Assembly (NCBI GenBank): GCA_977018835.1
Contig: OZ361261.1
Span: forward strand, 806,001 to 870,000
Direction: 5' to 3'
DNA length: 64,000 bases
Source: Minutocellus sp. GHC0000111
Taxonomy: Eukaryota
This document shows positions 511 through 61,900 of the stretch, piece after piece. The translations under genes and the position numbers were made by a program. Position 1 is the first letter of the stretch, and every line of letters begins with the position of its first letter. The notes under the pieces were generated by a model that saw nothing but the letters and a program-made list of their open reading frames with translations, did not search any database and had not been told where the DNA came from.

Positions 511-2178
511 ATGTTCCTCAAGAAGCTCGCTTGTGCCGCCCTATTTGCGGCAGCACCATCTGCTGCCTTCACGGGCATGCCCACTGTTGCCAGGGTGAGT
601 CCTCGACCGTTCTCTGCATCGGGAATTTCCGAGTGGCGCAACTTGATTTTGGCGACAGAATTGGCACATAGCAAACTGGAGGATTGGATCGTCGGATGAT
701 GTGTTGATTTGGAGTTCTCATCGTCCGGCTCCAATCTCGCGTGTATCTGAAATTCATTTCACTGACCCTCTTTGATTTTTCTCCCTCCATTTTGATGTGT
801 GACTGCGATGGTGGTGCAGAGAACTTCCTCTTTGTCGATGGCACGTGCGGCCCCGACGACCATCAAGGTTGGTATCTTTGGCGGTGGCACAGTCGGTGGT
901 GGCATCGTCGACATTCTCGACAAGAAGGCAGACTACTTCACCAGCCTCACCGGTCACAAGATCGAGGTCCGAAAGATCTGCGTGCGCGATGCCTCCAAGC
1001 CCCGTGACTTTGAGGTCCCCTCCCACGCCTCCATCGTCACTTCGTACGATGACATTTTGGACGATCCCGAGATCGATATGGTCGTCGAGGTGATGGGCGG
1101 TACTACCGATGCCAAGGATGTGGTGTATGATGCCCTCCGAAAGGGCAAGGATGTCGTCACGGCCAACAAGGCCCTGATTGCTGCCCACCTGCCCGAGATT
1201 GAGGGAGTTTTGGACGAGGTCAACGACGGCAAGAGTCCGGAAGATGAAGTTGAGTTCCGTTACGAGGCTGCCGTATGCGGTGGCATTCCCATCATCCGAT
1301 CGCTCCAATCCGATTTCGTCGGTGATGAGATTACCATGATGAGCGGCATTATCAACGGATGTACCAACTTCATGCTCACGGCCATGGACCGCGATGGCAA
1401 GAGCTACGAGGAGGCTCTCGCCGAGGCATCTGAACTGGGTTATGCCGAGGCCGATCCCACTCTCGACGTTGGAGGTTTCGATGCCCGATCCAAGCTTCGT
1501 ATCTTGATGAGACTTGCCTTTGGTGTGGAGGTCGATGAGGATGTCATCTCGTGCCGTGGTATTACGGAGCTTACCAAGGTCGACTTTGAATACGCAAAGA
1601 TGCTCGGAGGTACCATCAAGCTTTTGGGCGTTACCAAGCGTGTTTCCGAGGGCAAGGTCACTGCCTTCGTTTCGCCCTGCTATGTTACCGCCGATGACTC
1701 CCTTTCGTCGGTGAACGATGCCACCAATGCCGTGGAGGTCATTTCCAACAACCTCATCTCCTCCACCTACATTGGACAGGGCGCTGGTCGGTACCCCACT
1801 GCCAACAGTTGCATCAATGATGTCATCGCCTTGGCAAAGAACGACCAGACTCCCCTCCCCTTCAACCCCGGTAGCGATGATGAGATGGTGGGCAACTTTG
1901 AGTCCGTCTTCTACCTTCGTCTGAAGTACAAGGACATGTTGGGTATTACTCGTCAATGCGGTGAGGTCTGCGAAAAGCACGGCGTCAGCATCCACTCCAT
2001 CCTTCAAAACCCCGTGACCAAGAGGGACGACGCTGCGTTCGCCATCATCACGGAAAAGGTTGAGCTCAATGCCATCAAGGCCGTCTGCGAGGACATTCAG
2101 GGACTCGAGTGGTGCGCGGAGGATGTGTTCTACATGCCCGTCCTTCGGGAGGATTGGGTTTCCGGTTTGACCAACTAA
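511..2178 (+). CDS. Homoserine dehydrogenase with C-terminal ACT domain, plastid-targeted; intron 595-819
   Basis: Motifs GxGTVG, VVEVMGG, VVTANK, YEAAVCGGIPII, GIINGCTNF, GYAEADPTLDVGGFDA; exon 1 MFLKKLACAALFAAAPSAAF is a signal peptide with ASAF-like site; phase-0 GTGAGT..CAG intron keeps frame. Confidence 0.93.
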
Positions 2179-2667
2179 GAGGTGTCACAGAAAAGATGAC
2201 TGGATGACTTTACCGGTACTTGCGGAAGTGATAGATATAGCGCGAATGCAGTGGAGTACCGTAAAACCATTAAATAGGTGAATGCATTGCTCGTTGGTTA
2301 TTGCTTTGGAAAGAATTGATAATTGATTGTGCCAGTATTGTTCGAGCTATTGTTCGGCCTGTGGCACTTCGATGCTTCGATGCCCTATTGAAGTACGTAG
2401 AATGCCCCGTAACGGGACTAGGATTTCTCCCGTCCACCTCCCATCGAGAGCCACGGGGTGCCAGCCATCCCCAGCAGCAGCCGTTTCACACCTTACTCCA
2501 GTAGCGCACGGTCTGGTCGCCGAGTGCCTCGAAAAACAAGCCTTCTTGGTGTCACCGGACTGGCCCACGTACCTCGTCAACATCTGGCTGATAGCCACGC
2601 GCCTTGCCGAGCCTGAGATCCGCCGGGCACACGAGACGGCAACTGAGTTGGACCTGAGCAGTGCACT

Positions 2668-3597
2668 GTGCCGACTACCACGGGCAGACGGAGGCGTCGT
2701 GGTTCAACAGTGTCGGGGGCGAAGGTGTCCGGAGGCATCGGTAGCAGCAGCGCGGCAACACCATTGCATTTGGCCCCAGCTCTGCCGGCTCACGCAGTGC
2801 ATCCTCCACTGCCAGGCCGACCGAAAAGAAAGACGGCGCATCGCGGCCAGAGAGAGGGCAGACCTCTAGAGCCGACACCGTACGCTTGCATAGGTTCACG
2901 GGGGAGCGAGCTTCCACCAACGCTGCCGCTCACTCATTTCGAGTGGGAGGTAAGGCCACTCTTCTGCCCACGTGACGCACACGACCGAACCGAGCGGGCT
3001 GGCGTCAGTGTGGCATTGGAGCGAGGAGATCTCATCGGCCCTTTCGCCCTGATCACCCAGTTCCCGCTGGATTCGCCGTACCCGTTCCAGAGACGGCAGC
3101 ACCTACGACCGGACCAACTCACTGAAGCTACTATCAACTGGGACAGTGGATTCGAGAGCCTCACCAGCGCTCGACTCCGACACACTCGGCCTGACAGCAA
3201 TCCTCTTGGACACCGAGTGGAGGTCAACCCGCACGAACACTGGGGAAGGCTGGCAGACCTAACGGCGTCCCCCTCACACCGCTGGGTGGGCACCCACCAT
3301 CGAGTCTGTCCGAGGTGGCTAGACGATGCGGCCGATCCAAATCGCTGGGAGGGTGCCCACTGCCGCGTCTGGCCAAGAGCATCAATTCACCGGCGCCCCG
3401 ACGATCTCGAGGCACCTGTCCGCCTGCGAGATGTCACCGCCGATATTTTGGTGTCAGAGCCACCGCGTCAGGCATTCAACATCCTTCTATCCGCCTTTGG
3501 AGAGCCCGACATCGCCGACCGCATCCTCACCCTCACGGCCGATCTGAACCACATCCAGCGCCGAGAGGACCGACGCCGAAGGCGACAGGCAAGGTGA
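2668..3597 (+). CDS. Upstream ORF of unknown function, probably part of the element
   Basis: 309-codon open frame ending 16 nt before the gag ATG (3614); same high-GC composition; starts at GTG. Confidence 0.4.
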   Translation: MPTTTGRRRRRGSTVSGAKVSGGIGSSSAATPLHLAPALPAHAVHPPLPGRPKRKTAHRGQREGRPLEPTPYACIGSRGSELPPTLPLTHFEWEVRPLFCPRDAHDRTERAGVSVALERGDLIGPFALITQFPLDSPYPFQRRQHLRPDQLTEATINWDSGFESLTSARLRHTRPDSNPLGHRVEVNPHEHWGRLADLTASPSHRWVGTHHRVCPRWLDDAADPNRWEGAHCRVWPRASIHRRPDDLEAPVRLRDVTADILVSEPPRQAFNILLSAFGEPDIADRILTLTADLNHIQRREDRRRRRQAR

Positions 3598-3613
3598 TCG
3601 AGCATTGATCACC

Positions 3614-5665
3614 ATGGCTTCATCTTTCAACACCTGGAAGTCAGTCCTACTGGCACAAGAAACACCGGCCGGGGCCGACGCCGCCGTAGCTCGAGATTTC
3701 CAGAGATTCCTCGCCGACAACGTCTGTGAAACCGACCCCACGGCCGCTGTGGTCCAGAGCCATGCCCGAGCGATCCAGCAGCAAATCCGCGACGCCGAGG
3801 GTTTGTCCATGCTGGCCCACCATCCAGAAGGGAAAGTCGTGGTGATTCACCATGCCGTGGCTCAGGGAGGCACCACCATGCAGCCCGACCTCAGGTTGGG
3901 TGGGCTCCTCGGGATCGACGATGTAGCCCCGGCAATGTCGTTGGCCCAACCTAGTTTCTTGCGGCACAAGGAGGTCCTAGCCCCATCGGTGGAAGCCATG
4001 CTGGGGGCACCATCAGAAGCCGCCCTAACCGGTCTCACCCAGGAAGGCTCCAACACCCGCCACCGGAGTGCCTCCACGAAGTTTAAGTCCCTTGTGCTGC
4101 TGCCACCTTCGATTCTGCAGAGTGTTCTGGAAGAGCACGAGGCATCGCCTTGGGCCATCCTGTCCGCCATCAAACGTCGGCTGGATGAGGACGCCGGCAG
4201 CGACGACGCATCAGACAGCAGTGACGACGAGGGTCATGGCGCAGCAGGTCTTCGCTCCAATGAGGCTGTTCAACACGTCGTCAAGTGGCTGTGGTTCGTC
4301 GCCACGTCCGAGCAAGGTGACGTCCCGGCCGTCAGCTTGCACCCAACGACGGACCCGGCTCTCAAGACATGCGCCCGTGAGATGCACGCTCTGCACATCA
4401 CTGGCGCCAGAGGCGACGGACCACCAGCCGGTGGCGCCCCGACCGACTCTGCAGTTGCTGCCGCGGCCAACGCCATGACTAGGGCCGCGTCCGAAGCATC
4501 CTCCCTCACCGGCGCAGTCATGGCCTACACTGACAAGGTCGACAAGAAGCACTCGATGAATGGCGCCATCCTCAAGGCCTGTGCCGCTTTCTGCCGGGTC
4601 TCGACCGAGCATGACGATGATGTAGCAGCGATCGACTCGAATCTTCCCGAAGGATTGAAAGCACTGCTGGAAGAGTCAAACCTCACGCAAGCAGCCGTCG
4701 GCCTCGAGCTGCATGTAAAGGGCAAGACCGGAGTCAGGACATCTCTCCAGGGCCTCACCACTTACGTCCGCCTCTTTGGCTTCGGGAAGAGCGACAAGAA
4801 AATCTACGATGGCTTCTCTGTCTTCGCCTTTAGCCCGGCAAACTCCAGCAGCAGCAATGCGCCCCTGTGCCTCGCCGCCTCTCAAAAGAAAGGATGCACC
4901 TCGACTCAGGTGAAGGCTCTTCTGAAGCAGAACTGCCGGTCCCCAACCGAGCACGACGGTGCCAAACGTCACATCTCGGCCTTCGGCGCTGGCATTTCCT
5001 TCCTTGCCGGAGAGGATTCCGAGCCCGCTCGCTACGTCGCCAGGGTCCTCAGTCACATGAAGACACACGAGGACCAGTGCCGCGACATCGCCGAGAGCCA
5101 TGGCGAGAAGTTCTGGCTGGCGATGTTCCACAACATCGACGCCTCCATCCATGCATTCTGGAAAGCTTGTCTCCGTTCCCCCGACGACGCCGGCAACGAC
5201 CTCTCTTGCTTCTCAATGGCCGACGAGTCCAAAAAGACAATGAAGACTCAGAATCCTTTCGTCTACCCCAGCCACATCAAGCTCGTCCAATCGGCCGACG
5301 CTCCCACCCCTTCCTCGGATTCCGACTCCGACAAATCAGAGCCAAGAACCAGTCCGAAAAAGAAGCAAAAGACGGGCGGCGCCAGCGGCAGAGCCCACCA
5401 GTGCGAACACTTCGTCACGTTCGACATCAACCCCGGCAACTTTGCAAAACGGCATGGCAAGAAATCCGAGCCCTGTACAGACCTGAAATTAATGGCTGTA
5501 AATTCTGCCCTCCATTCATCCTGACAGGCAGGTGTCTGCGGCGCCGGATCCTCGTGTAAGCTCAAGAAGTCGCATGTCAAGAGGCCTCTTAAGGCATCGG
5601 AGAGAGGACCCGTCGAGCAGCACGTCGAGAAATGCGATCGGAAAAACGAGGAGGCGGAGGAATGA
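3614..5665 (+). pseudogene. Gag-like ORF1 of the YR retrotransposon; frameshifted at the C-terminal Cys/His knuckle
   Basis: Long ORF 3614-5524 upstream of pol; fragments NGCKFCPPFILTGRC and SSCKLKKSH continue in shifted frames. Confidence 0.7.
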
Positions 5666-6260
5666 CGGATCGGGTGGGCACGGAGGCGTGGCCCACCCTC
5701 GGAGGATGCTGGAGAAACATCTCGGCCAGCCGGCCGAGCTCGTCCCTCCAAGCGCCGTCGAGTGCAGCCAGATGCGTCGGCGTCGATCCGCCCCGGTGGC
5801 TCCAGCCGCCCAAGGTTGTCCGGCACCCCAAAGTCCGGCGTGTGCGGTCGCAACGACATCAGCAACCAATCCAGGCTCTCCGGTGCCCCTAACACCGGAG
5901 CAGAAGGCCGAGGCGTTAGCAGTGACCTTCGGTCGGGTCCTGGTCCCCCTAACACCAGCGGTGATGCCTGCGCCGACAACAGCATCTCAGGCTCTGGCTC
6001 CAGCACCACTAACGCTGGCGGTGCGGAAGCCACCGACAACCTCTTCGACCGGCTAGGCCAGCGAGAGAAGGATCTCCTAGGCAAGCAGCCCCAACCCGAA
6101 GCACAGTCTCCCTCTGGTTCCCCTACGCACAGCAAGGAAGCAGAACCGATGCGCCAAAATGGCAAGTGAGACCAACAGGTGAAGAAACACCTGCAACAAA
6201 CGGGGCAGCCCAGCGCCCACCACGGTCGGACAGACCCGTGCATGCTCGTGAACGTGCAGC

Positions 6261-8861
6261 ATGCACATGTCTCACCTTTTTCTCGCCTTGTGCAACTCCA
6301 CGTGGGAACTAGAGCCCATCTTCGATGTTTCCACCTTGGTGCAGTGCGTCCGACGAGCAGTCGAGTCCCCGTCGGCCACACCGAAGCCCACGGAGTTCAG
6401 ATTTGAGCTCTTGACGGAGGCCGCCGCTCACAATTGGTCGGTCCTCAAGAAATGCGATCGTTCTCTGAGCAGGGCACTCGAGGCGCAGGGCGGGTCGCCA
6501 CTCCAACCGGGATCGGAGTTCAGAGACCTGAGTCTTCTGGAGCCGATTCTTGGCCGGCACCCGCTGTGGCCCCGCTTCCGCTCCACCATTCTCGACAGTG
6601 GATCCGACTGGGCCCTCGATCCGGTGAGCGACGAAAGCAGACTGGACAGCGTGATAAAGAACATCGGCCGAGGCAACCACAAATCGGCCAGGGACAGGCC
6701 GGAGGTGCTCAAGGACCAAGTTCTCGACGACGTGACCCGCGATTTCGCCCTCCCTCTGCCAGCAAAGGTCGCGCCCCTCATTCCTGGAGCGGAGGTGGCC
6801 CCGATGGGTTTGGCAGCACAGAACACGATCAGCGAGGCTGGCGAGATCATGCCCAAGGACCGCCTGACTCACGACCAATCCTTCGAGATCGGCACCGCAC
6901 GGTCCGTCAACAACAGAGCACGCATGGAGGACCACCAGCCAGTGGTGTTCGGCCATGCCCTCCGGCGAGTGATCCACTACATCGCAGACGCCCGTCACAA
7001 GCATCCCCGTGCTCCCATCCTCCTGCAGAAGGTCGATTTCAAGGCTGCGTGTCGCCGGGCCCACTTGGCTCCCAGCACGGCCGTCAAAACGATCACCACC
7101 CTGGATGGCATTGCCCTCATGTCCCTCCGGCTGACTTTCGGCGGCCGCCCTTGCCCGAGCGAATGGTGCAACATGTCCGAATCGGCGGCCGACCTGGCCA
7201 GGGCCCTCCTGCAATGCTCGGACTGGGACCCGTCAGAGCTCCACAGCCCCCAGCAGAAGCACTTGGGTCGCCCCAAGGTGGAGGGCGACGATGTGCCGTT
7301 CGCGCCGGCCCTGGACATGATCGCAACCCTTCCCGACAACAAGGATGGCATCGTCGAGCCGCACATCGATGACCTCATCGCCGCAGCCCCTGACCTGGGC
7401 GACAACAAGGATCGGATGTCCGCTGCCACCCTCCTCGCCATCCACGCACTTGGCCGACCGGCATCCGACAGAGAGCCACTGCCCAGAGATGACCTTGCCT
7501 CCATCAAGAAGCTGCTGCTCGCCGAGGGGACGCCTTCCGAAGTGCTGTGTCTCTTGGGGTGGGATGCTGATGCCCGGCGGCTCCTGTTGAGGCTCCCTTG
7601 GAGCAAGCACCTGGCCTGGCGCGATGACATGCTTCGGCTCCTCAGAGCCCGCGGCGCCACCAGATCAGAGCTGGACACCTTGGTCGGAAGGCTAAACCAC
7701 GTCGGACACATCATTCCAGCCGCACGACACTTCCTCAGCCGCCTTCGGGATCGGCTCTGGAAGGCCCGCCGCCACGGCCGCCAACGGTTCGACTCTGAGG
7801 ATGCAGAAGACCTCAACCTGTGGCTCCGCTTCCTCCGAAGGGCCGCCGATGGCATGAGCATGAACCTCCTCACGCACCGTTGCCCCACCCATGAGCACAT
7901 AAGTGACGCCTGCGAGCACGGCATCGGCGGATGGTCCTCATCCGGCAGAGCGTGGAGACTTGCCCTCCCCGAGGAGCTGTGGGGCCGGTTCACCCTCAAT
8001 TGCCTGGAACTCCTCGCCGCCGTCATCGGCCCATGGATCGACCACATCGAGGGCAACCTACCAACCCTCTCCTGCGTGCTGTCGGGGACCGACAGCACCA
8101 CGGCCGAGGGATGGCTCAGGAAGTCGAACTTCGTGTCTCACGGCGAGAAGGATGCCGACGTAGCGGTCAAGCTGGCCACGGCGCGGAAACTAGCCGACAT
8201 GCTCATCGAGACCAACACCATGCTGTGCTCACAGTGGTTCCAGGGGAAGCGCAATCCGGAGGCCGACTCTCTTTCTCGTGGTGCCGATCTCTCTGATGCT
8301 GACCTCACGAAATTGCTTCTGTCATCTCCCGAATGTCAGCTTCACTCAAATTTCAGGATTGCACCACTGCCCAACGAGATTGCTTCCTGGATTGTCTCGC
8401 AGGCGCGGACGCTGCCCGTCAGGAAGCAGTTACAACGGCCACTGCCGAGAAGCACGCTCTCGCGTGGAGCCGCTGGACTGAGTTCCTGCTGCAGCTCATC
8501 GGGACCGGGGACGACGTCTTCCTCGACAAGGTGTCACCCCGAGACCGAACAGTCATTCTCGGCGCCTTTGCCCACGCCGTCCGACAGGCCAGCTTTTCGG
8601 GGCCAAAATTTTCGCGACTGGCTGCGTCGACAGTCCGAGACGCCGTCTCACATGCATGCTCGTCCTTCCGGCACAACCAGCGCAGCAGGGACCCAGGGAA
8701 AGACGACATCGGCCAGCCTTCATTCCTTCTACAGCGGCAGTTCCGAGGATGCAGCCAGTCCGACCCGGCCGAGCGGCCGGAGAAGGCGATCACCTGCCGG
8801 CTCCTCCGAGAGATCGCCTCCGTCAGGGAAACGGAAGAGGACCGTGCAGTCGGGCAACTAG
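6261..8861 (+). pseudogene. Reverse transcriptase/RNase H of DIRS/Ngaro type, catalytically mutated
   Basis: Motifs KDRLTHDQS, KVDFKAAcRR, LRLTFGGRPCP, hIDD in place of YxDD, LLGW; RNase H motifs SDAC..GIGG, NCLEL, TDSTTAEGW, NPEADSLSR. Confidence 0.9.
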
Positions 8862-9560
8862 CCGTCGGCGCGCCTTCTTCTTCGCGATGAGGTCTTGCGA
8901 ACACTCCAGAGTCAGCGGTGAGCGCAGGACCAAGCTGCTGCTCCGCCTCCGCAACATCCAGTTCTGCCGCGGCCGACGGCGCATGTGTCACAACGACCGG
9001 TCCCTCTTCTCAGCAGACTCTGTCTCCGTCACCTTTGAGTTCCAGAAGAACGACGAGCGTGACGTCACGATTGCGCAACACTGCACCCCCACGACGCCAC
9101 CCTCTGCCCAGTTCGAGCTTGGGCTGCCCTGGTGAAACGAGTCCTAGGGTGCCCTAGCACCAACAGCGACACGCCGGTAAATGCCTTCGTGGTCAACGGC
9201 GTGTTAAAACACATTCCTGCCACCCGAACAGTTGACAAGATCCGAGCGTCGGCCACAGTGATTGGAGAGGACGTCCTCCTGGGCTGCCATCATCCCCCTC
9301 TGAATTTGGATCACACTCCATTCGCAGCGGAGCAGCAATGGCAATGTGTCTAAATGATGTTCCCACGTACACAATCATGCTGGTAGGGCGGTGGTCCAGT
9401 GACGCCTTCCTCAAGTACATCCGTCGCCAGGTCCAAGAATTTACATCCGGAGTCTCCACACGCATGATCCAACGAGGTTCCTTCTTCAACCACCAACGTG
9501 CCCCACGCACACTCGACGAGCCATCGCGAAGACCCAAGGACCCCAAATTGCCGCCAATCC
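8333..9560 (+). pseudogene. Tyrosine recombinase of the element, several frameshifts; end approximate
   Basis: AFFFAMRSCE (catalytic R), FEFQKND, HSIRSGAAMA (HxxR at 9314), GRWSSDAFLKYIR (W and catalytic Y); overlaps 3' end of RT ORF in another frame. Confidence 0.88.
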
Positions 9561-9706
9561 TTCGCCGGCATCAACAGTGTTGGCCGAAATGCCGGCTTCG
9601 GGACTCCAATGCCCCCCTTCGCCCTGTTCACCTAAGCACGACACACATCATTGGCCGATCTGTGCTGCTACGGAAAAAGGAGGAGGGGGGGAGAGGGACC
9701 TCACTC

Positions 9707-9834
9707 TCTAAGAAGTTTCATTTACCGCCAATGCCAGCTCCAGTTCACGTAGTTAAACTGCATTTCATGTTCTACTAAGTTGCATAGAGTTGGGAGAATC
9801 AGCGGAGGGAGGCACTGTGTTCGATGTGTCATCG
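9707..9834 (+). repeat. Terminal direct repeat copy 1 (B1-like)
   Basis: tctaagaagtttcatttacc...gggaggcactgtgttcgatgtgtcatcg is nearly identical to 10077-10195. Confidence 0.92.
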
Positions 9835-10076
9835 TTGTGGGTGCCGCACGGTGGGCATGAGCTGGCGACGGTGGTTAGCAGCAGGCACTAAAACTGCATT
9901 CCTGTAGTGCCCAGTTTTTCTGCTGACCACCACCTTCGCCTCCTCTCGTCTCAACTGACCAAGCCACAACCATCTGCGATTGCTGCCGTTGCAATTGCTA
10001 AGTCAGCTTACAGTGCCGGCTCCCAGAGCCTGTCTCTCTCTCTCTCAGTAGTTAGTTTTAAATTCCCTCAAACCCG

Positions 10077-10195
10077 TCTAAGAAGTTTCATTTACCCCGC
10101 CGCCTTCACGTAGTTAAACTGCATTTCATGTTCTACTAAGTTGCATAGAGTTGGGAGAATCAGCGGAGGGAGGTGCTGTGTTCGATGTATCATCG
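10077..10195 (+). repeat. Terminal direct repeat copy 2 (B2-like), marks the element's 3' end
   Basis: tctaagaagtttcatttacc...gggaggtgctgtgttcgatgtatcatcg. Confidence 0.92.
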
Positions 10196-10508
10196 CTCGG
10201 ACATCTCGGACGGCAAGGAGCCAAAGTTGCTAGGCTGGGATCTGACCCGCCGCCGCCTCGATGCGCCAGTGGCCGGAGCAGTAACGCGGACAGGCAGCGA
10301 GTGCGTAGTCGAGGAGCACGAAGCGTAGCACAGTGTGTTCGTTGCGTTTTTGCATCACAAGCAAGAAAGTCAGGCAAACCGAACGAACTATCGGGTCGGC
10401 CTATGCCTGCAGATCGATCCCTCGGCCCCTTCCGCCGGTTGCTGACAGAGACCATACCAGAGACTCACTCGGGACCGCTACCGCCTTCCGCCACAGACGG
10501 ACGACACG

Positions 10509-12997
10509 ATGCTCATCGGCGACGACTCGGCCAACGAGGACCCGCGGCTGTCCAGCGCGGCCAGTCTCCTCCGCCTCGGTCATTTGGGTGCGACCTTTGG
10601 ACCCACCTACACGCACCAGTGCTTCGACGACGAGCGCGTTCGTGGATTTCAGCCGTACGACGACGCCATTCGAGAGACGGAGCGGCGGTACGCCACGTCT
10701 CCCCTGGCGCTGATGAATGATGTCAATGCTGGTGCTGGAGCTGGTCGGTTGGCCGTGTCGCGCCAGGCCAGCAAAGGACTGCGCGAATCGCTGGTCAGGT
10801 CTCACGATCTGCCTCACAAGTCCTTCCAGCATCACGAGACGGCGACGCATCGACTGTCGCTGGAGGTCGTGCTGGCTCCCAGCTGTCAATCCTGTGCGGT
10901 GATCATTCGAACGGAGGCCAAGAAGAGGGATCGGGCGGGAAGTACCGCCAGCGAGGCTTCGTTGGTGTCGGCGTCGTCGGCCTCCTCATCATCGGTCCCA
11001 TCGTCCAGATCGGTGTCACCGTATTTCGATCTGCAGGTCCAGCCGACCAATGATAATACTGCTGCTGCTGCTGCTGCTGCTGCTAGTGGTGGTGGTGGCG
11101 GTGGTGCTGGAGGTCGTGGTGGCAAGCGACGTCGGGTGGGGCGCAATGACAGTGACTGTGAGAACAATGATCGCAAGTCACCCCCTCTGGCCGTTGGTGC
11201 TGCACCGATGAGCGTATTGGAGCAGCTGGACAGCATTGCCGACGGTAATGGTATCGGTACCAACGCCAACAATGCTACTACTGCTGGTCCCAAGATTGTG
11301 TTCAGCAGCAAGAGTACCACCGGCATCCCCCTCGCGCCCGGTGCCAATACCATGGTCGTCCATCCCCTCTCCACGTACGCTGCCGCCAACAGCACTGGTG
11401 GTGGTGGCCGTGCCGGCAGGACGCGCCGTCGCCGGATGGAGATCGACGAGGTGCTGGAGAGGATCAGCCGGACCCTCCCTCCCGTGGTTCGGTGCGATCA
11501 CATTCGTACCGACGAGTTGGGGGGTGGTGATGATGATAGTGGCGGCGGTAGTGCAGGATTGCAACTGCCATTGGTCCAGGTGGGAGGTGCAACCATCGAT
11601 GAGGTACGTGGGGCCTACCTATCGCACCCACTTGGTACCGTGCTCAAGAAATATCAGCGACCCATTCGCAATGCCAATGCCACACTCACGTCATCGGCCA
11701 AGATCAATGACAACGAGTCGATGGGAGACTTTGTCCTGTGTCTGGCCGATGGGAGAGATGAGGGTGTTGCTGCATACCACAATCGCGTGCAGAGATTGGC
11801 CCTCTGGTACATCGAGAACGACAGCGAGGTCGATCTAGCATCGACCGACAGCGGCGGGTATTGGAAGGTCCTCTACGTGTTCCGCAGGCATAAAGTCGCC
11901 GGTGCTGGCGATGATAACCATGGTGATGACGCCAAAATGCCTTTGGTGGCTGCTGAAGAGACTGAGGATGGAAAAGATAGTGACGACGTCAAGCCTGCAG
12001 CCAGTAGCAGTAGCGATCAGACATCGCACAGGCCATCTCATCAGTCATCTCCCTTGGTCAAGCGTGCCGTCAAATCCTTTTACTCGACGTGCGATAGTCT
12101 CGTGTCGTTGTTCTCTGGACGCCATAATCAAGGCAGTGATAATAGTCGCAGCGCGTTCGAGGAGAGGGTGAATGCAGAGCCACTCGATCTACCTCTGCCA
12201 TCATCGCAGTCCTTAGATAGGACCATTGACGACGGCTATGGTGATGACGAGGACTCTTCGTCGAACACAGTCAAGTACGAGTACTCCCTCGTTGGTTTAT
12301 GACGCTGTTTCACTGCTATTCTCAGTACAAGAAGCCATCTGCTGGGACCATATGCCGCATGTGTCAGGCTGTAGTCCTTCCCTCGTTCCAGCGCGCCGGT
12401 CATGGGAAAATGATGATGATTGGCGCTCACGAGGTGGCAAAGGGCAGATACGCGGATATGCTCCCGCCATCTATTGGGCAGAGGGGTGACATCGTTGAGG
12501 TCGATGTGGAAGATCCGGCGATTGAATTTACCGCTCTGAGAGATCGAGTTGACTACGAGATGGTGAAAGATGCCATCGCTAGTGACCCTCGGTCGGTACT
12601 TGGGGTCAACGTGGCCGACGTGGCCGTTTCTCAAGAGGATTACTACCTTCCCCTCAGTGGACAAGAGCTGGTCGAGGCATCCTCAATTCTCAAGATCACA
12701 CCGGATCAAGTCCAAATTGCTCTCGAGTTGTACAAACGCAATGCGTTGGATGACGAAATTTCGCATCAAATGAGAGAAAAGAAGAAGAAACCCGCCACCA
12801 AGAGGCAGGCTGTTGCCAAGCTGGAGGGTATGTACGAATCTATGGTCAAGAAGCGTCTGTCGAAGGTGTACCGGGAGGATATCAGTGGTTGCGGTGGTGG
12901 AAAGGCTGAGAAGGATGCCGTACTTGATTATCTATATGATGAAACTATGGCTCACTATCGCTCGATCTTGGGGGAAAGAAAGAGCGCTCGCAGTTAG
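10509..12997 (+). pseudogene. HAT1: HAT1-like histone acetyltransferase with a frameshift at ~12296-12299
   Basis: PTYTHQCF..E.VRGF, YHNRVQRLALWYIE, YWKVLYVF, then MTLFH...RMCQAVVLPSFQRAGHG and VEDPAIEFTALRD in another frame; junction ggtttatgacg. Confidence 0.75.
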
Positions 12998-45121: not shown

Positions 45122-47934
45122 TCAATTAAGCTGAACTGCCTGCTGTTGCATCATTGCGTGAGGTCCGTGACCAACGCCTCCGGCAGCATAACCACCAGCG
45201 TCCAGGTCGTTGTGAACATGGAAGAAGAGCAAGAAGAGTGCCCACAGATGAAGCAGAACCAAATAAAGAAGGAATACGCCGCGAGCCAACGGATCAGTCC
45301 GTAGATATGCGCCCGTTTCGACAGACCATCTATCGAGGGCGTCAATTGCCATGCCAACAGCTTCATGTGCCTCACTTCCGCCCCTCCCAGGATCGAGTTT
45401 CATCGCGGAGCGAATACTGGAAGATCTGGACTTCGGACTCGGCCTTCCCCTTCGTCGTCTCATTTTGCTCGTATAAGTGCCTCCTCTTTCGAGCTCAGAT
45501 AGATCGGTCGCATTTCCAGACATTGTCATGGCCTTCTCCGCGGCTTCGGCGCGAGATGTCGCGGTCCGGAGGCGACTGCGAAGAGTCGATATCTCAACCT
45601 TGCTATCGTCGATCTTGCTCTGATGTTGCACGACGAGCTGCGATAAAGTTGCAACGCGTTTCTTAAGTTCCGACACTTCGCTCGCCGAAGTACCGTCTGA
45701 ATTGCCGCCATCTCCCATCGACGAAGGCGTCCTCTTCAGATCCCTCAGGGAAGTTTGCAAACGAGAAATTTCCGCAGTCATATCCGCAACCTGACGATCG
45801 TACTGCTTTTGTTTTGCTTGAATGGCAGAGGCCTCCTCTGTGCGTTCTTGAGTGATTTCCTGCAGCTCTTGTTGGAAAGTCTCGCACTGTGTTCGTGTGT
45901 TGAGGGTTTATAAGAACATACGGGCATACAATGTGAGTCTTGGTTAAGTATGAGAGAACAAACGAGCACGTCCAATGACCGAAAAGGAAGAGAAAACTCA
46001 CCCTCTGCTGTTCCAGCATAAGCTGCGTTTTCAACGTTTCGATCTCTTCTTCGGCAGTTTCAAGCTGTGCTCTCAACGAAGAGTTCTGATTGCCGCCATC
46101 ATCAGAAGCAGTACCAGTAGACCCGATACCACTTGGGCCGCCAATTCCTCGGGCCTGCTCCTTCTGCCTTGCAACGGCCAGAGCTGCACCGAGTTCGGCG
46201 ACAGTTCGTTCCAGTTCGGCTTCGCGGGCTTGTCGCTGGCTCAGCTGACGTGCATGCAGAGACAGGGCTGCGTCGAGCCGATCATCTGCCTCTCGCTCAC
46301 GTTCCGTCGCAGTCTCCGAAAGTTCGGCGACAGAGCCCAGCCGCGTTTCCAGCGCCGTCATTTGGGTCTGCAGAGTCGATACTTGATTGGTGAGGGTTTC
46401 CTTCTCCTCCTCTAACTCCATCATCTTCTTCACGACGTCTCGTTCCCTCTCCAGTGCATCCTCGAGCTTCTTGTTCCAGTCACCACCCTCCTGTTCCCGG
46501 GCCTCGTTGGCCCGACGAACCTGCTCCTCCATATCAGCGATGCGCTCGGCATGCCTCGCGGCCATGGCATCCAACGCCGCCTTGTGTTCGGCCGCGGCCG
46601 CCTCCCTCTCCTCCTTGCGCTCTCTCGCCACCCGCTCCTTCTCTTCCTTGTTCCGAGTCCGATCCCTCTCCATCCGCTCGGCGGCCCGTTCCAGCTCGGT
46701 CCGTTGTGCATCGACCTCGGATTCGGCCGCCTCCAGCTCGGAGTTGAGCTTGACGACGTGCCGACGGAGCTTCCGCAACTCTTTCTCGGCCTCCTGTGAC
46801 TGCTGTGCGGCCCTCTTGGCCTCGTTGGCCTGATGAAACATCTGGGCCTCCATCTCCTCTACTCTAGCCCGAGCCTCGGCCGACTCCACTGCCTTGGAGA
46901 CGGCCGCCGCTGCCAGATCGATGCTCGGTGGAGTAGCCTTTGCACCTGCAGCAGGTGCTAGTACTGGTGCTGATGCTGATGAGGGATCCAAGTCGGACGA
47001 ATCATCCTCTTCTCCGTCGGTGGAATCTACCACAACAGCCGATGAAAAGCCGCCATCGTCGGTGGTATCTCCACCCCTTCCATCGTCAACGTTGTCAAGA
47101 TCGGCAAAGTCATTGCCATCATCTTCCCATCCCGACGGGTCCGACGATATGGCACCGGCATTGGCACCAGTCGGGCTGCTCTCGTCCTCCTCGGTCGACG
47201 ACGACGGCGGTTCCAGCCCCGTCGCAAGTGCAGCTGGCGGTGCCGATTGTGCCGTCTGCTGCTGCGTCACCGACGACATGCCCGACAGAGGCGCCGCCCC
47301 TGGACTTGGCTGAGTGCCGAAATCATTGCCACCATCGGCAATATCGCCGCCCATTGCCTTTGCTGCAACCTCGTCTTGATCTCCGCCTCCGCCTCCTTCC
47401 TCTTCATCCTCTTCGTCGTCATCACCCAGCAGACCCCTCCGCGCCAATATGTCATTCACCGAGCTCTTGCTGGCCAATCCCCTCACGCCGGGACTGGCCA
47501 CGGCACCGGCAAAGGTGGAAACCGCCGCGGCAGCACGAGCCCCCGACGCCGATAGGTCGCCGACGCCTACTCCTAGACCGGACGAGGTCGGGGCCGACCC
47601 AGTGCCCGCGGACGACCCGCTGTACTCATAGGCGGCCTCCTCGAGCCGTTCCTCGGCCTGCTCGACGGCGTCGCCGACTTGGTCGTCGAGGTTCTCCAGG
47701 AGGTTGTTGACTTGTTTCAACCACCTGGTTTGGTTTGGTTTGGTTTGGTGCGGGTGGTAGCAACAACAAGTGAGAGGGGGAGCATACATGGCAGCACGAG
47801 TGAGAACGAGGAGGTTTGGCACAGAGCACGAGCGAGACAAAAGATACGCAATGAATTGACGAGTAGATTGGTCTGATCGTGAGATCACAACATGCAACAC
47901 GAGCTAGTTAGAGATGGTTGACTTACCTTGACAT
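45122..47934 (-). CDS. Golgin-84/GOLGA5-like coiled-coil Golgi membrane protein; introns 47725-47926 and 45887-46001
   Basis: MSR|WLKQVNNLLENLD start, long coiled coil, C-terminal TM PLARGVFLLYLVLLHLWALF. Confidence 0.78.
47727..47748. repeat. (GGTTT)n microsatellite at the intron acceptor
   Basis: ggtttggtttggtttggtttgg. Confidence 0.8.
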
Positions 47935-58707: not shown

Positions 58708-58938
58708 CGCCGGTCAACTACCGGTACCTACGCTACCGATACCGGCCGGTAAAGCAGCACCTGCATATGCCATCATCATCAAAACTGACTTTGCTTCGAC
58801 GGAAAGACGACGTGCCGGTCATGTGGCAAATTTTGGCGGCCAACTTGCTTCTACTTGCTTTTTTCGTTAGTTTGCCCAAGGCGCGTGGCCGCTTCTGTAT
58901 CATTCCGCACATGGTGTACCAAAGAACGGCACCAGCAA

Positions 58939-61900
58939 ATGGGCCTCGAAATGGAAGAACTGGAGCCGCTAACGGCGTCGGCGGCCGCCAGTGCCTCGTC
59001 GTCGGTGGCTTCGGCCGATCCGCCGGCGCACACCCGCATTCCGCCGCCGCGCAAGCAAATGGCATCGTTTGGGAATGGCACAGCGGCGAGCCGGGGTAAC
59101 GGGAATGGCGTTGGTGGTGCGCATGCAGCGAATGGTGCCGGGCCAAGGCCACCCAACGCAGCAGCATCGGGCCAATCATCGGCCACGAGCCGGAAATCCC
59201 GTCTGCTGGCCGCCCTGTTCCTTCTGCTGGGCCTGGCGGTGCTCTTGGTGATGCGTGGCGAAGAAGAAGTCGAGATGGAGCAGGCCTCCTCGGGCTCGGG
59301 AATGCCGGCCAATCCCAATGGTCTGCCGGAACCACCGCTGGAGCCCGTGCCGGAGGCTCCTGATGTTATTGCCACTCCTTCCAACGATGCAAAAGATTAC
59401 GAGGTTGAGCAACCACCACCGAAAGAACCAGAACCAGAGCAACCGAAAGAAGAACCAAAGCCCGCTGAAGAGGAACCGAAAGAGGAAGAGCCAAAGGAAC
59501 CACAGACCAAGGAGGAGAAGGAGGCAGCCCTCCTCGAAAAGTATGGCGAATGGCACTTTTGGGATGGGGAGCCGGAGATCCGTCCCAAGGACGACTATGC
59601 CTCCAAGTTTACCAACCGTGACATTCTCGAGGATGATTTTCCCGAAAATGCCTGGCAGGTCGATGCCGTATACGTCAACCATTTCCTCAATGATGCGTCC
59701 AACCTGATCTCGCGCGCCGAAGAGGCCATCTACGAGGAGTACGGACATGGCAAACCCTTGCCGTCCGAGCAGATAATGGAGCGGTCGAAAATGACCAAGC
59801 TGAACAAGATCGATCTGTCCGATACCAATGCCCAACCTCCCGCGGATTACATGGACAACAGTGGTTGGACGACGAAGCGGAGTTTCGAGGGTTTGGTACG
59901 GCGTCTCCTCCACGCTGTCATGTCCAACGATGTGTTTACCGTGGTCATCCTTGGTGATGGGCCGATGGCATCCGGTGCCGGCAATCACTTTGCCCAAACA
60001 TATGGCATGCAATTCGAATCCATCATGACACCCATTTTTGCCAGGCTCAATACCAAGTTTGTGGTGCGACACATGACCAGAGAAGGCATGGGCGGTGGTC
60101 CCCTTCTCGATGGACTGGGATTTACTGATCTCATCAGTGGTAGTGGTGATGGTGCTCCTGGTGTAGATTTGTTGATTTGGGATTCGTCCGGTCTGGACAC
60201 TGCCCAGGCCGCTCCCAATTGCAATGCCGAATTGGACCTGATGATCCGTCAGGCGGCATTGGGAGGCGGTGATGATCGCATCCCCTACATCATGGACGGA
60301 GGTGGATTGTCGCTGGAGGTTCTTAGATCCCTGCATGAAAAGGGTGGCATGGATGTTGGTGGTCTTGGCATGGGCTGGGCCGGAATTGCCGAGACGGAAT
60401 CTGATGAGCAGGCCGCAACGCTTCCCTGGGCTGCTCGGTATCTTCGATGCAAGGATGGAAAGGAAGATTTATGCGAAAAGGCGGAGAACAAGTATCTCAA
60501 TACATGCTGGGTTGATCGAAAGGGAGTCAATCCGCCGACAAAGCAGGACGAGCATATTGCTGGAGCCGACAAGGCCCATCCAGGATGGAGATATCATCAG
60601 CTCAAGGGCCGAATGCTGGCGGTGACTGTTTTGGAGGCTCTGCAGGAGGCAATCAATACTTGGAGTGTTGTTACAATCACTGCCGGCCATCCTCTGCCAG
60701 ATGAATACTGGCATGTTACGGACTACTACAAGGATATTCGCGAAAAGATGACCAATCTTGATGCGGACGTGGGATCATGCGGGAAGCTCAAGGATTATCT
60801 ACCCGAACGAATGTGCAAGGTAGCCGTTCGCAGTCGGACAGAGCACACTCCTCGCCTCAATCCGGACGAAACCAGCATTTCCAGCATGATCAAGCCCGCC
60901 GGTGAGAGCCAATATGTACCCAAGGTGGAAGACAAGATGGTTTATGATGGACCAGACGAGCCCAACCCCGTCCTTGCATTGCCAGAGGATGCCTTTGATG
61001 TTCGCTTCATCGTTAGTGCGGGCATTAGAAGGTTGCGACGTCTTGATGACGAAGCGATTGTTCCTGGTTTGGGCTGGCAAATCCACGGGGAGCTACCGGG
61101 ACAATGCGATGGTAGCTCCAGCGGCATTTGCGGTCGACAAGAAACGTCTTCTTGTCTGCTCGATGGTCACATGGCTTCCAAGGGTGGTGTTTTGGGTAAC
61201 GAATTCAGCGGCTGGCTCGTCTTCACGGTTAAGAATGTGAAGGAGGGGTTGATTGCACTGGTATTGGACACATCACACGAACCTAACGAGAGCACCAGGA
61301 CCGAGGGTTGGATCGAGGCTAGAACCTCCGAGAAGCAGGAGGAGGAAAAGAAGGAAGAACAGGAGGAAGAGAAAGAAGAGCAAGCTGAGGAGGAAGGTGA
61401 TGGCACCGGTGAGGAGGAAGGCGATGCCGCTGGGGACGATCAGAAGAAGGATGAGACAGAGCAAGAGGGTGGAGACAACGAGGATAATGACAAGGAAGCA
61501 GAGGGCGATGGTGATAAGTTGAGGCGATTGCGTCGAAGGAGGCAATTGCAGAATACTGAACAAGCCTCATCGGCTCCTCATGGCGGCCGACGATTGCTGC
61601 CGGATGAATTCAAGTGAGTATTTATTTTTTCATGTTGGGGAGATATCCTCTCGTCCTGATCGCCAGCATATTCCTAAGCTCATTACCTTTTTCGTTTTTA
61701 CTTCTGTGATTCTATTCTTCTTCTTGCTGCAGATTTGACTACGCTATTGGTGGCGAGATTACCACGCTCGACAAGGCATCGTTTGAGGACAGATTAAAGA
61801 GCCCATGGGTTCCCTTGGGCCTCCTCACAATTCTTGACGATGCATCCCTAAAGGACGGGAAGGAGATTGAGGTTGCGATTCGAATGCGAGACTGTGGCCG

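Follow-up and report, generated by a model that had tools for sequence, protein, structure and literature searches.

The locus analysed here raises the question of why the core of one diatom transposon is almost devoid of TA in the context RTAY, while the genes beside it are not. The window, i.e. the whole stretch of DNA that was analysed, covers 64,000 nt of the diatom Minutocellus sp. GHC0000111 (GCA_977018835.1, contig OZ361261.1, positions 806,001–870,000, forward strand), and all coordinates refer to it. A sequence-only reading had proposed that TA was changed to TG or CA at RTAY sites of a retrotransposon, and its counts hold on recounting. Between 3447 and 9366 there are 45 TA but a single RTAY, the GTAC at 5475, as had been claimed for a core of about 5.9 kb. 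At the RTAY share of the host, at most one RTAY among 45 TA has a probability of 4.5e-8, and host windows of 5,920 bp each contain at least 52 (median 67). The stretch 6601–8400 has seven TA, none of them between 6981 and 7692. The observed/expected ratio (o/e) of TA is 0.06–0.26 in the kilobase windows of 4001–9000 versus 0.34–0.77 in all 54 kilobase windows from 10001 on. CpG remains abundant, as the earlier reading had also noted, with an o/e of 0.81–1.04 in kilobase windows.

The neighbouring genes serve as host controls. To the left lies the homoserine dehydrogenase exon (821..2178, plus strand, Pfam PF00742), which has normal TA and, with 14 RTAY in 1,358 bp, exactly the number stated earlier, a normal RTAY o/e of 0.83; every match to this exon that carries an organism name is from a diatom. 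To the right of the insertion, a HAT1-like gene (10446..12302, plus strand, Hat1_N E=4.5e-6) has a normal RTAY o/e of 1.06–1.16 at a GC content of 0.57–0.60. All 15 host windows of 1.5 kb with GC of at least 0.57 keep 9–18 RTAY, so that the depletion is not shared by GC-matched host DNA. Within the 64-kb window the change is therefore confined to the element, as proposed.

The converted element is larger than first flagged and extends over 2437..10201 on the plus strand. It is a 5'-truncated copy of a Ngaro-like tyrosine-recombinase retrotransposon, and its insertion is polymorphic. The left edge is seen at 2436/2437 as a stepwise rise in contig depth (runs X6 and X9), upstream of which other copies run on with different letters. 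A single X6 contig links 2435 to the letters found at 10202 and represents the empty site. In X6, the element is about 27 times as deep as its flank, which is a ratio of contig depths and not a copy number. Contigs of RNA runs also contain the element; as these runs may contain DNA, we make no claim of transcription. The region 2380–2900 was considered as a separate recombinase fragment on the minus strand; however, six-frame searches against 77 loci were empty, and the depth places the region within the element.

The element contains several reading frames, all on the plus strand. Its 5' part (2437..3613) is partly converted, with four RTAY kept at 2569, 2880, 3078 and 3443, and here other copies still show TA alleles. 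Neither this part nor the 316-aa open frame within it (2647–3597) has a Pfam match. ORF1 (3614..5662), a member of a 57-member cluster (P0170), is in a gag-like position and its frame is broken near 5477–5527 in the window copy. One ORF1 relative (P0190) has a C-terminal CCCH-type finger (zf-CCCH E=3e-4, below the Pfam cut-off). The RT/RNase H frame (6267..8861) runs from stop to stop over 6252–8861, giving 869 aa, and the two tyrosines counted in it are correct. No RTAY is left in this frame (o/e 0.0), and its YIDD motif now reads HIDD. It escaped sequence searches of Pfam, whose RT models are too remote from the diatom clade, and of PDB, but a structure predicted for the intact relative P0007 (pLDDT 86.5) is matched by those of reverse transcriptases (best E=2e-10). 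The overlapping tyrosine recombinase frame (8333..9635) is frameshifted by small insertions and retains the tyrosine codon of its C-terminal LKYIRR. It matches the relative L029 at 76% on the DNA level, where the frame is intact (423 aa) and its Atlas structure matches are named Phage_integrase (TM 0.64–0.67). The recombinase of the relative L008 gives a Pfam match of E=0.07 only.

Two terminal repeats, B1 (9707..9834) and B2 (10077..10195), follow on the plus strand and are 88% identical across 128 bases. The earlier assignment to DIRS-type elements has to be replaced, as ORF1, an RT/RH frame and an overlapping YR frame without a detectable methyltransferase domain are like Ngaro (PMC3783388, as far as accessible). 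The complete A-ORFs-B-A-B repeat set of Ngaro is present in the distant relative L008, while the window copy shows B1 and B2 and has lost the 5' A by truncation. Inverted terminal repeats as in DIRS1 were not found in the window element, nor was a Dam match to the DIRS1 adenine methyltransferase domain in a Pfam search that is insensitive for this clade.

The core, where TpA has become TpG or CpA on either strand, is saturated over 3447..9360, and the ends are less fully converted. A simple model in which the ends are spared does not hold, since conversion has reached part of the terminal repeats and, in the window copy, several YTAY sites of the 5' region. The lone GTAC at 5475 is probably not a survivor but a new site, since, judged from the proteins of other copies, it sits on the junction of a 4-base deletion in the window copy.

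To follow the conversion across the family we used proteins of the copies, up to 47 for the RT frame and 19 for ORF1, from one family and one subfamily (P0003). The copies probably originate from the assembly of the window itself, and one is a 100% match. Most spectra are read from proteins and not from DNA, which misses sites fixed for one outcome. Two duplicate proteins (P0166 and P0167) were dropped from the RTAY-site tally and the motif model; 12 overlapping or ambiguous sites were dropped from the ancestry and strand analysis and eight from the motif model. At the 24 fully resolved RTAY sites, 438 of 446 calls are converted (210 TG, 228 CA and no CG). Paired TG/CA differences are also present at the DNA level, in contigs of four runs from up to three studies. 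The copies carry many short duplications as well.

Outgroups favour TA as the ancestral state at 28 of 37 sites and CG at two. In an unmutated sister at 88% (P0173), nine tyrosines are encoded at RTAY, and 98 of the 99 Y, H or C calls in the copies are H or C. Compared with the 76% relative L029, the window copy keeps 1 of 14 TA versus 52–75% for the other 15 dinucleotides. Relatives that natively lack RTAY, named earlier as a result that would speak against the proposal, were not seen: all 77 keep it (o/e median 0.63, minimum 0.23). These comparisons show that TA was, on the sequence evidence, ancestral at the converted sites, and hence that the change is not CpG decay. The proposed direction, from TA to TG or CA on both strands and opposite in polarity to RIP, is thereby upheld, and the excess in TA context dominates the polarised spectrum. 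The predicted Tyr to Cys or His and Ile to Met replacements are borne out in the copies, together with Ile to Thr.

Each copy mixes TG and CA, with a TG share of 0.53 among 682 calls. There are no strand runs within copies (p=0.26) and no strand bias per copy (p=0.73); in the motif model a strand term of -0.07 to -0.09 reflects a slight excess of CA. It is shown by these patterns, as far as sequences can, that sites within a copy were converted independently and on both strands, which argues against conversion in a single pass, be it on RNA, on cDNA or on a duplex before replication.

The motif model shows that a pyrimidine 3' of the A raises conversion about 10-fold, T being as good as C directly 3' of the target A, and a purine 5' of the T about 4-fold. 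The proposed action on both strands stands, while the strict RTAY palindrome suggested earlier gives way to what the fitted sequences show as a graded single-strand motif, (R)TA*Y. The dose at RTA*Y is 2.0–2.7 per A versus 0.02 at AAY and 0.001 at AAR, a gap of at least 100-fold. Off-target A>G changes follow the same 3'-pyrimidine rule (32/5,892 at RAY vs 4/6,607 at RAR, p=2e-7) and are highest after A (AAY 24/1,212). In their 5' order A stands above G, and C is ambiguous; the CAY counts were set aside for their overlap with skewed TA-derived sites. Rates vary from site to site by more than the motif predicts, for example at the GTAC kept at 9367 and 9415. The copies also show about 3-fold CpG decay (C>T 35/7,482 at CpG vs 20/13,233 elsewhere), and RTAY conversion is about 1,300-fold above non-CpG C>T, a rough estimate from accumulated changes.

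The polymorphic insertion is saturated inside and its flanks are normal. B1 and B2 have three mismatches in a 91-base core, all at two TpA-type sites. From these differences between the terminal repeats, and from the lack of strand runs or bias within copies, it is likely that conversion followed insertion and extended across many cell divisions; the data fit repeated hits on chromosomal DNA.

Could the pattern have arisen without any special process, by CpG decay, an inherently GC-rich composition or an artefact of assembly? TG/CA dimorphism also marks CpG decay, two of the 37 sites lean to a CG ancestor, and the GC-rich relative L029 has a low TA o/e of 0.31. However, CpG is not depleted (element o/e 0.91–0.93), the ancestor had Tyr and not Arg, RTAY is kept in all relatives, and the same pairs occur in short-read contigs from separate studies, so we regard such an origin as very improbable. 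Editing during retrotransposition, i.e. A-to-I on the element RNA and again on the minus-strand cDNA, would deliver copies already mutated. It would explain a saturated polymorphic insertion with normal flanks, and copies would likewise be independent. It would, however, require that RNA and DNA be edited at nearly the same rate and in one motif, given the balanced TG share and a strand term near zero, and the terminal repeats differ at TpA sites. The 3' preference is also for pyrimidine and not the UAG of ADAR (PMC10661471, as far as accessible), and in Bigelowiella natans a similar change is reported to arise in resident DNA (bioRxiv 10.64898/2026.01.13.699255). This origin is doubtful indeed.

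Repair synthesis that is error-prone in the manner of polymerase eta and focused on repeats also seems a poor candidate. This polymerase causes A>G at WA, with TA and AA only a few-fold apart, and both the off-target peak after A and the many short duplications, suggestive of sloppy synthesis or nick repair, would suit it. The gap between RTA*Y and AAY or AAR is, however, at least 100-fold, and the changes are not clustered along a strand. A miscoding base modification targeted to repeats is unlikely, though the likeliest of these alternatives. Either the thymine of R-T-A would pair with G after oxidation or alkylation, or the adenine would first be methylated and then lost as G. On the opposite strand these counts yield a clean motif, R-T*-A-(Y), and a modified thymine fits equally well because A>G and the complementary T>C look alike in sequence alone. 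To our knowledge no enzyme writes such a TpA mark with comparable mutagenic yield, while deamination needs just one known chemical step. The CpG decay indicates that the copies probably lie in chromatin that carries methylation, a setting in which a writer enzyme could work; transposons of diatoms are described as CG-methylated islands (PMC9998398, in the part accessible).

We lean, at somewhat better than even confidence, towards a host mutator that converted TpA in each copy and that is probably an adenine deaminase of DNA, directed to silenced repeats. The A of one strand would become inosine and be copied as G, and this first hit would destroy the TpA, so that the end states would be TG or CA but never CG. 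A low rate per round over many replications could then give the mixed TG/CA pattern. CpG methylation or small RNA are candidate targeting signals. Copies that have lost conserved tyrosines, among them those of YIDD and RSCEY, would be crippled, and the mutator may serve in defence.

The process, of which the earlier reading knew no description, has a published precedent. In Bigelowiella natans, integrated DNA of NCLDVs and virophages has been reported to be hypermutated from TpA to TpG/CpA on both strands, in foreign DNA only and about 1000-fold over background, and an ADAT2-like adenine deaminase was proposed as the candidate (Mettrop et al., bioRxiv 10.64898/2026.01.13.699255, as far as accessible). 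New mutations were measured directly there, arising in chromosomal DNA and in some lines only, and TpA-poor coding sequences were enriched for RT and DDE domains. The diatom element likewise shows A:T>G:C transitions concentrated on TpA on both strands, confined within the window to mobile DNA and of a similar fold. However, B. natans is a rhizarian and the diatom a stramenopile, the target is a multi-copy retrotransposon and not single-copy viral DNA, the family is 98% saturated at RTAY with the flanking motif resolved, and our data are accumulated changes instead of new mutations. The accessible main text of the preprint contains no mention of a diatom, stramenopile, retrotransposon, or flanking or trinucleotide context, and our literature search found this describing paper and none further. 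What the diatom case adds is a retrotransposon family that is nearly saturated, and a motif defined on a single strand which the off-target changes also follow. It further provides evidence that the rounds of conversion were many and independent, and a polymorphic insertion whose flanks are clean.

Among other systems, RIP in ascomycetes is similar in that both-strand, dinucleotide-specific transitions confined to repeats cripple the copies. However, RIP is C>T and creates TpA (as stated in the same preprint), while the diatom change is A:T>G:C, erases TpA and stop codons, and leaves no strand runs. RIP is further known to be triggered by the pairing of repeats during the sexual cycle and to depend on RID. 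In TadA/ADAT2-3, ADAR and TadA-derived editors, A is also read as G and T is preferred before the A, and the derived editors favour C after it (PMC8989541, as far as accessible). The natural substrates of TadA/ADAT2-3 and ADAR are RNA, whereas chromosomal DNA appears to be hit on both strands in the diatom. TadA editors are least active after A (PMC8989541), whereas A stands above G in the diatom off-target changes, and ADAR-type editing would affect the sense strand only, with G after the A.

The known mutational defences (RIP, APOBEC and methyl-CpG decay) act on cytosine, and the adenine/thymine route was so far described in one preprint on a rhizarian alga. Saturation in a diatom makes this the second major SAR lineage for the process, and since this lineage includes genetically tractable species, enzyme and targeting become testable, with the motif as a fingerprint for assays. 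For annotation, the process raises the GC content of repeats to high values, removes Tyr, TAA and TAG codons and leaves long dead reading frames, and both the consensus and the estimated age of a transposon are distorted by it. If the enzyme is indeed an adenine deaminase that acts naturally on DNA, it would be of interest for base editing. It can be speculated, though we would put this at rather less than an even chance, that diatoms and chlorarachniophytes have in common a hitherto undescribed enzyme of genome defence, a natural adenine deaminase that targets (R)TA*Y in the chromosomal DNA of silenced mobile elements and can erase an entire family of retrotransposons. Such an enzyme would do at A:T what RIP and APOBEC do at cytosine, and would be the first adenine base editor known from nature to act on chromosomes in defence.

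The TA depletion of the element is real and strong. Window positions 3447-9366 contain 45 TA dinucleotides and, as the sequence-only reading had counted by hand, one RTAY; the probability of at most one RTAY among 45 TA by chance is 4.5e-8; the lone GTAC sits at a deletion junction specific to the window copy. Per kilobase, the observed/expected ratio (o/e) of TA is 0.06-0.26 in the element core compared to 0.34-0.77 elsewhere in the window, and CpG is normal. RTAY o/e is 0.0 in the RT frame and 0.83 in the neighbouring homoserine dehydrogenase exon (821-2178, + strand), while 15 GC-matched host windows range from 0.58 to 1.16, i.e., host DNA is not equally depleted. TAA and TAG occur at about half their host-DNA frequency in 3614-9360, which partly accounts for the element's numerous shadow frames that overlap one another. 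Two host frames, 45663-47903 (-) and 58789-61617 (+), encode 746 and 942 aa with normal RTAY, and neither matched Pfam at E 0.01.

All homoserine dehydrogenase matches with an organism name are diatoms, the nearest being Odontella aurita (80%). The element (2437-10201, +) contains ORF1 and frames for RT/RNase H and, overlapping, a tyrosine recombinase, together with a pair of direct terminal repeats. The predicted fold of an intact relative at 65% identity resembles those of reverse transcriptases, supporting the RT assignment, and a distant relative, L008, has the A-ORFs-B-A-B order that defines Ngaro. Upstream of ORF1, a 316-aa open frame inside the element (2647-3597, +) has no match in Pfam. 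Contig depth steps upward at 2437, other copies extend farther upstream, and the site 2435/10202 is empty in run X6 and filled in run X9; thus, the window copy is 5'-truncated and insertion-polymorphic. About 12 target bases are replaced at this site, unlike the clean junction that a recombinase would be expected to leave. Compared with other copies or L029, a relative with 76% DNA identity, the window copy also contains numerous 2-7-base duplications (at 6583, 7511, 8486, 8682, 8868, 2849 and 8930-9500), in the RT frame about one per two non-TA substitutions. A copy in run X17 has different ones. An insertion bias acting across the genome might explain such duplications, as might nick repair, of which they would be a by-product.

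Protein searches listed at least 49 RT-frame and at least 18 ORF1 proteins of the family, the RT-frame copies mostly 91-98% identical and nearly all on ENA contigs of 0.1-5.3 Mb, including the window's own; we infer that all come from one assembly. Two clusters are represented by 15 of 31 and 15 of 57 members among the matches listed, so an intact copy may exist among the rest. Conserved positions are dimorphic: of 41 copies, 35 have H at the YIDD tyrosine, five have C and one has Y. TA remains in 8/446 calls at 24 fully resolved RTAY sites, at most two per listed copy, in 19/60 calls at three RTAR sites and in 76/126 at eight YTAY sites, both also fully resolved; at nine partly resolved YTAR sites 2/140 calls differ. 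Paired TG/CA differences are visible at the DNA level in contigs of four runs, and in P0003, an 82% subfamily member, 11 of 12 RTAY sites are converted.

The proposed direction, from TA to TG/CA, is borne out. An origin of the dimorphism from CG is ruled out by outgroups, which across 37 sites favour TA 28 times and CG twice, by L029, of whose TA only 1/14 is kept in 7900-9360 (other dinucleotides, 52-75%), and by P0173, an 88% ORF1 sister on a 2-kb contig that has kept all its tyrosines. Its nine RTAY-context tyrosines are H or C in 98/99 family calls and its seven YTAY-context tyrosines in 27/84. That P0173 is unconverted points to a close lineage without the mutator or with active copies. 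Relatives do not natively lack RTAY, and most carry no His/Cys: RTAY is kept in 77/77 metagenome relatives, whose contigs are consensus sequences that could mask partial conversion, and 169/188 relatives have no H or C across eight tyrosine columns. P0015, a 49% relative on a 6.5-kb contig, is the only one of the 188 with C or H at three of the eight, possibly a partial conversion in another organism.

Both strands are affected, as had been claimed, with a TG share of 0.53 in 682 RTAY calls, but the motif is graded rather than a strict palindrome. In a strand-symmetric competing-risk model fitted to 74 sites, a pyrimidine 3' of A contributes about 10-fold and a purine 5' of T about 4-fold, with a small strand term (-0.07 to -0.09). 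Off-target A>G obeys the same 3' rule (32/5,892 versus 4/6,607), and, relative to non-CpG C>T, the dose at RTAY is about 1,300-fold. Within a copy, adjacent sites are uncorrelated (p=0.26) and there is no strand bias (p=0.73); between copies, pattern sharing is at chance level, a few duplicates excepted.

These mixed, independent TG/CA states would be explained by many low-rate rounds in replicating DNA, since one saturating duplex pass gives each daughter one strand's changes and an RNA pass gives only TG. Among known chemistries, adenine deamination to inosine would be the most direct route. TadA-derived editors are described in PMC8989541 as preferring T before and C after, in common with the element's motif. 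A miscoding thymine or adenine mark would fit the sequence equally well. A polymerase eta route failed on A>G context and strand data, and an ADAR-type route on the TG share and 3' preference. CpG decay in the copies, about 3-fold, suggests that they are methylated, as PMC9998398 describes for diatom transposons, and methylation might be the targeting signal.

Within the window, conversion is restricted to repeat DNA, as first proposed: the flanks of the insertion are normal, so targeting tracks the element and not its chromosomal location. The terminal repeats differ only at TpA-type sites within their 91-base core. Conversion is less complete at the ends, where seven of the element's eight residual RTAY lie outside 3447-9360. 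The window copy keeps GTAC at 9367 and 9415, in the recombinase C-terminus, compared with survival in about 2% of calls for core RTAY; the corresponding tyrosines (9368, 9416) likewise survive in P0125 and P0133, both of the other copies with proteins reaching there, and P0125 keeps three further tyrosines upstream.

The sequence-only reading knew of no description of the process, and a literature search covering few subscription journals found no paper on such TpA conversion in diatoms. However, TpA->TpG/CpA hypermutation has been published for Bigelowiella natans, where 231/302 mutations in mutation-accumulation lines mapped to two viral regions and were nearly all of this type, with a rate near 6e-7 per site and generation, and an ADAT2 homologue was proposed without test (Mettrop et al., bioRxiv 10.64898/2026.01.13.699255). 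The main text of that preprint, as far as available, mentions neither diatoms nor flanking context. The window case represents a new form of this process, whose first report dates from 2026, and differs from B. natans in lineage, in target class, in its near-complete conversion and in the usable motif in the element.
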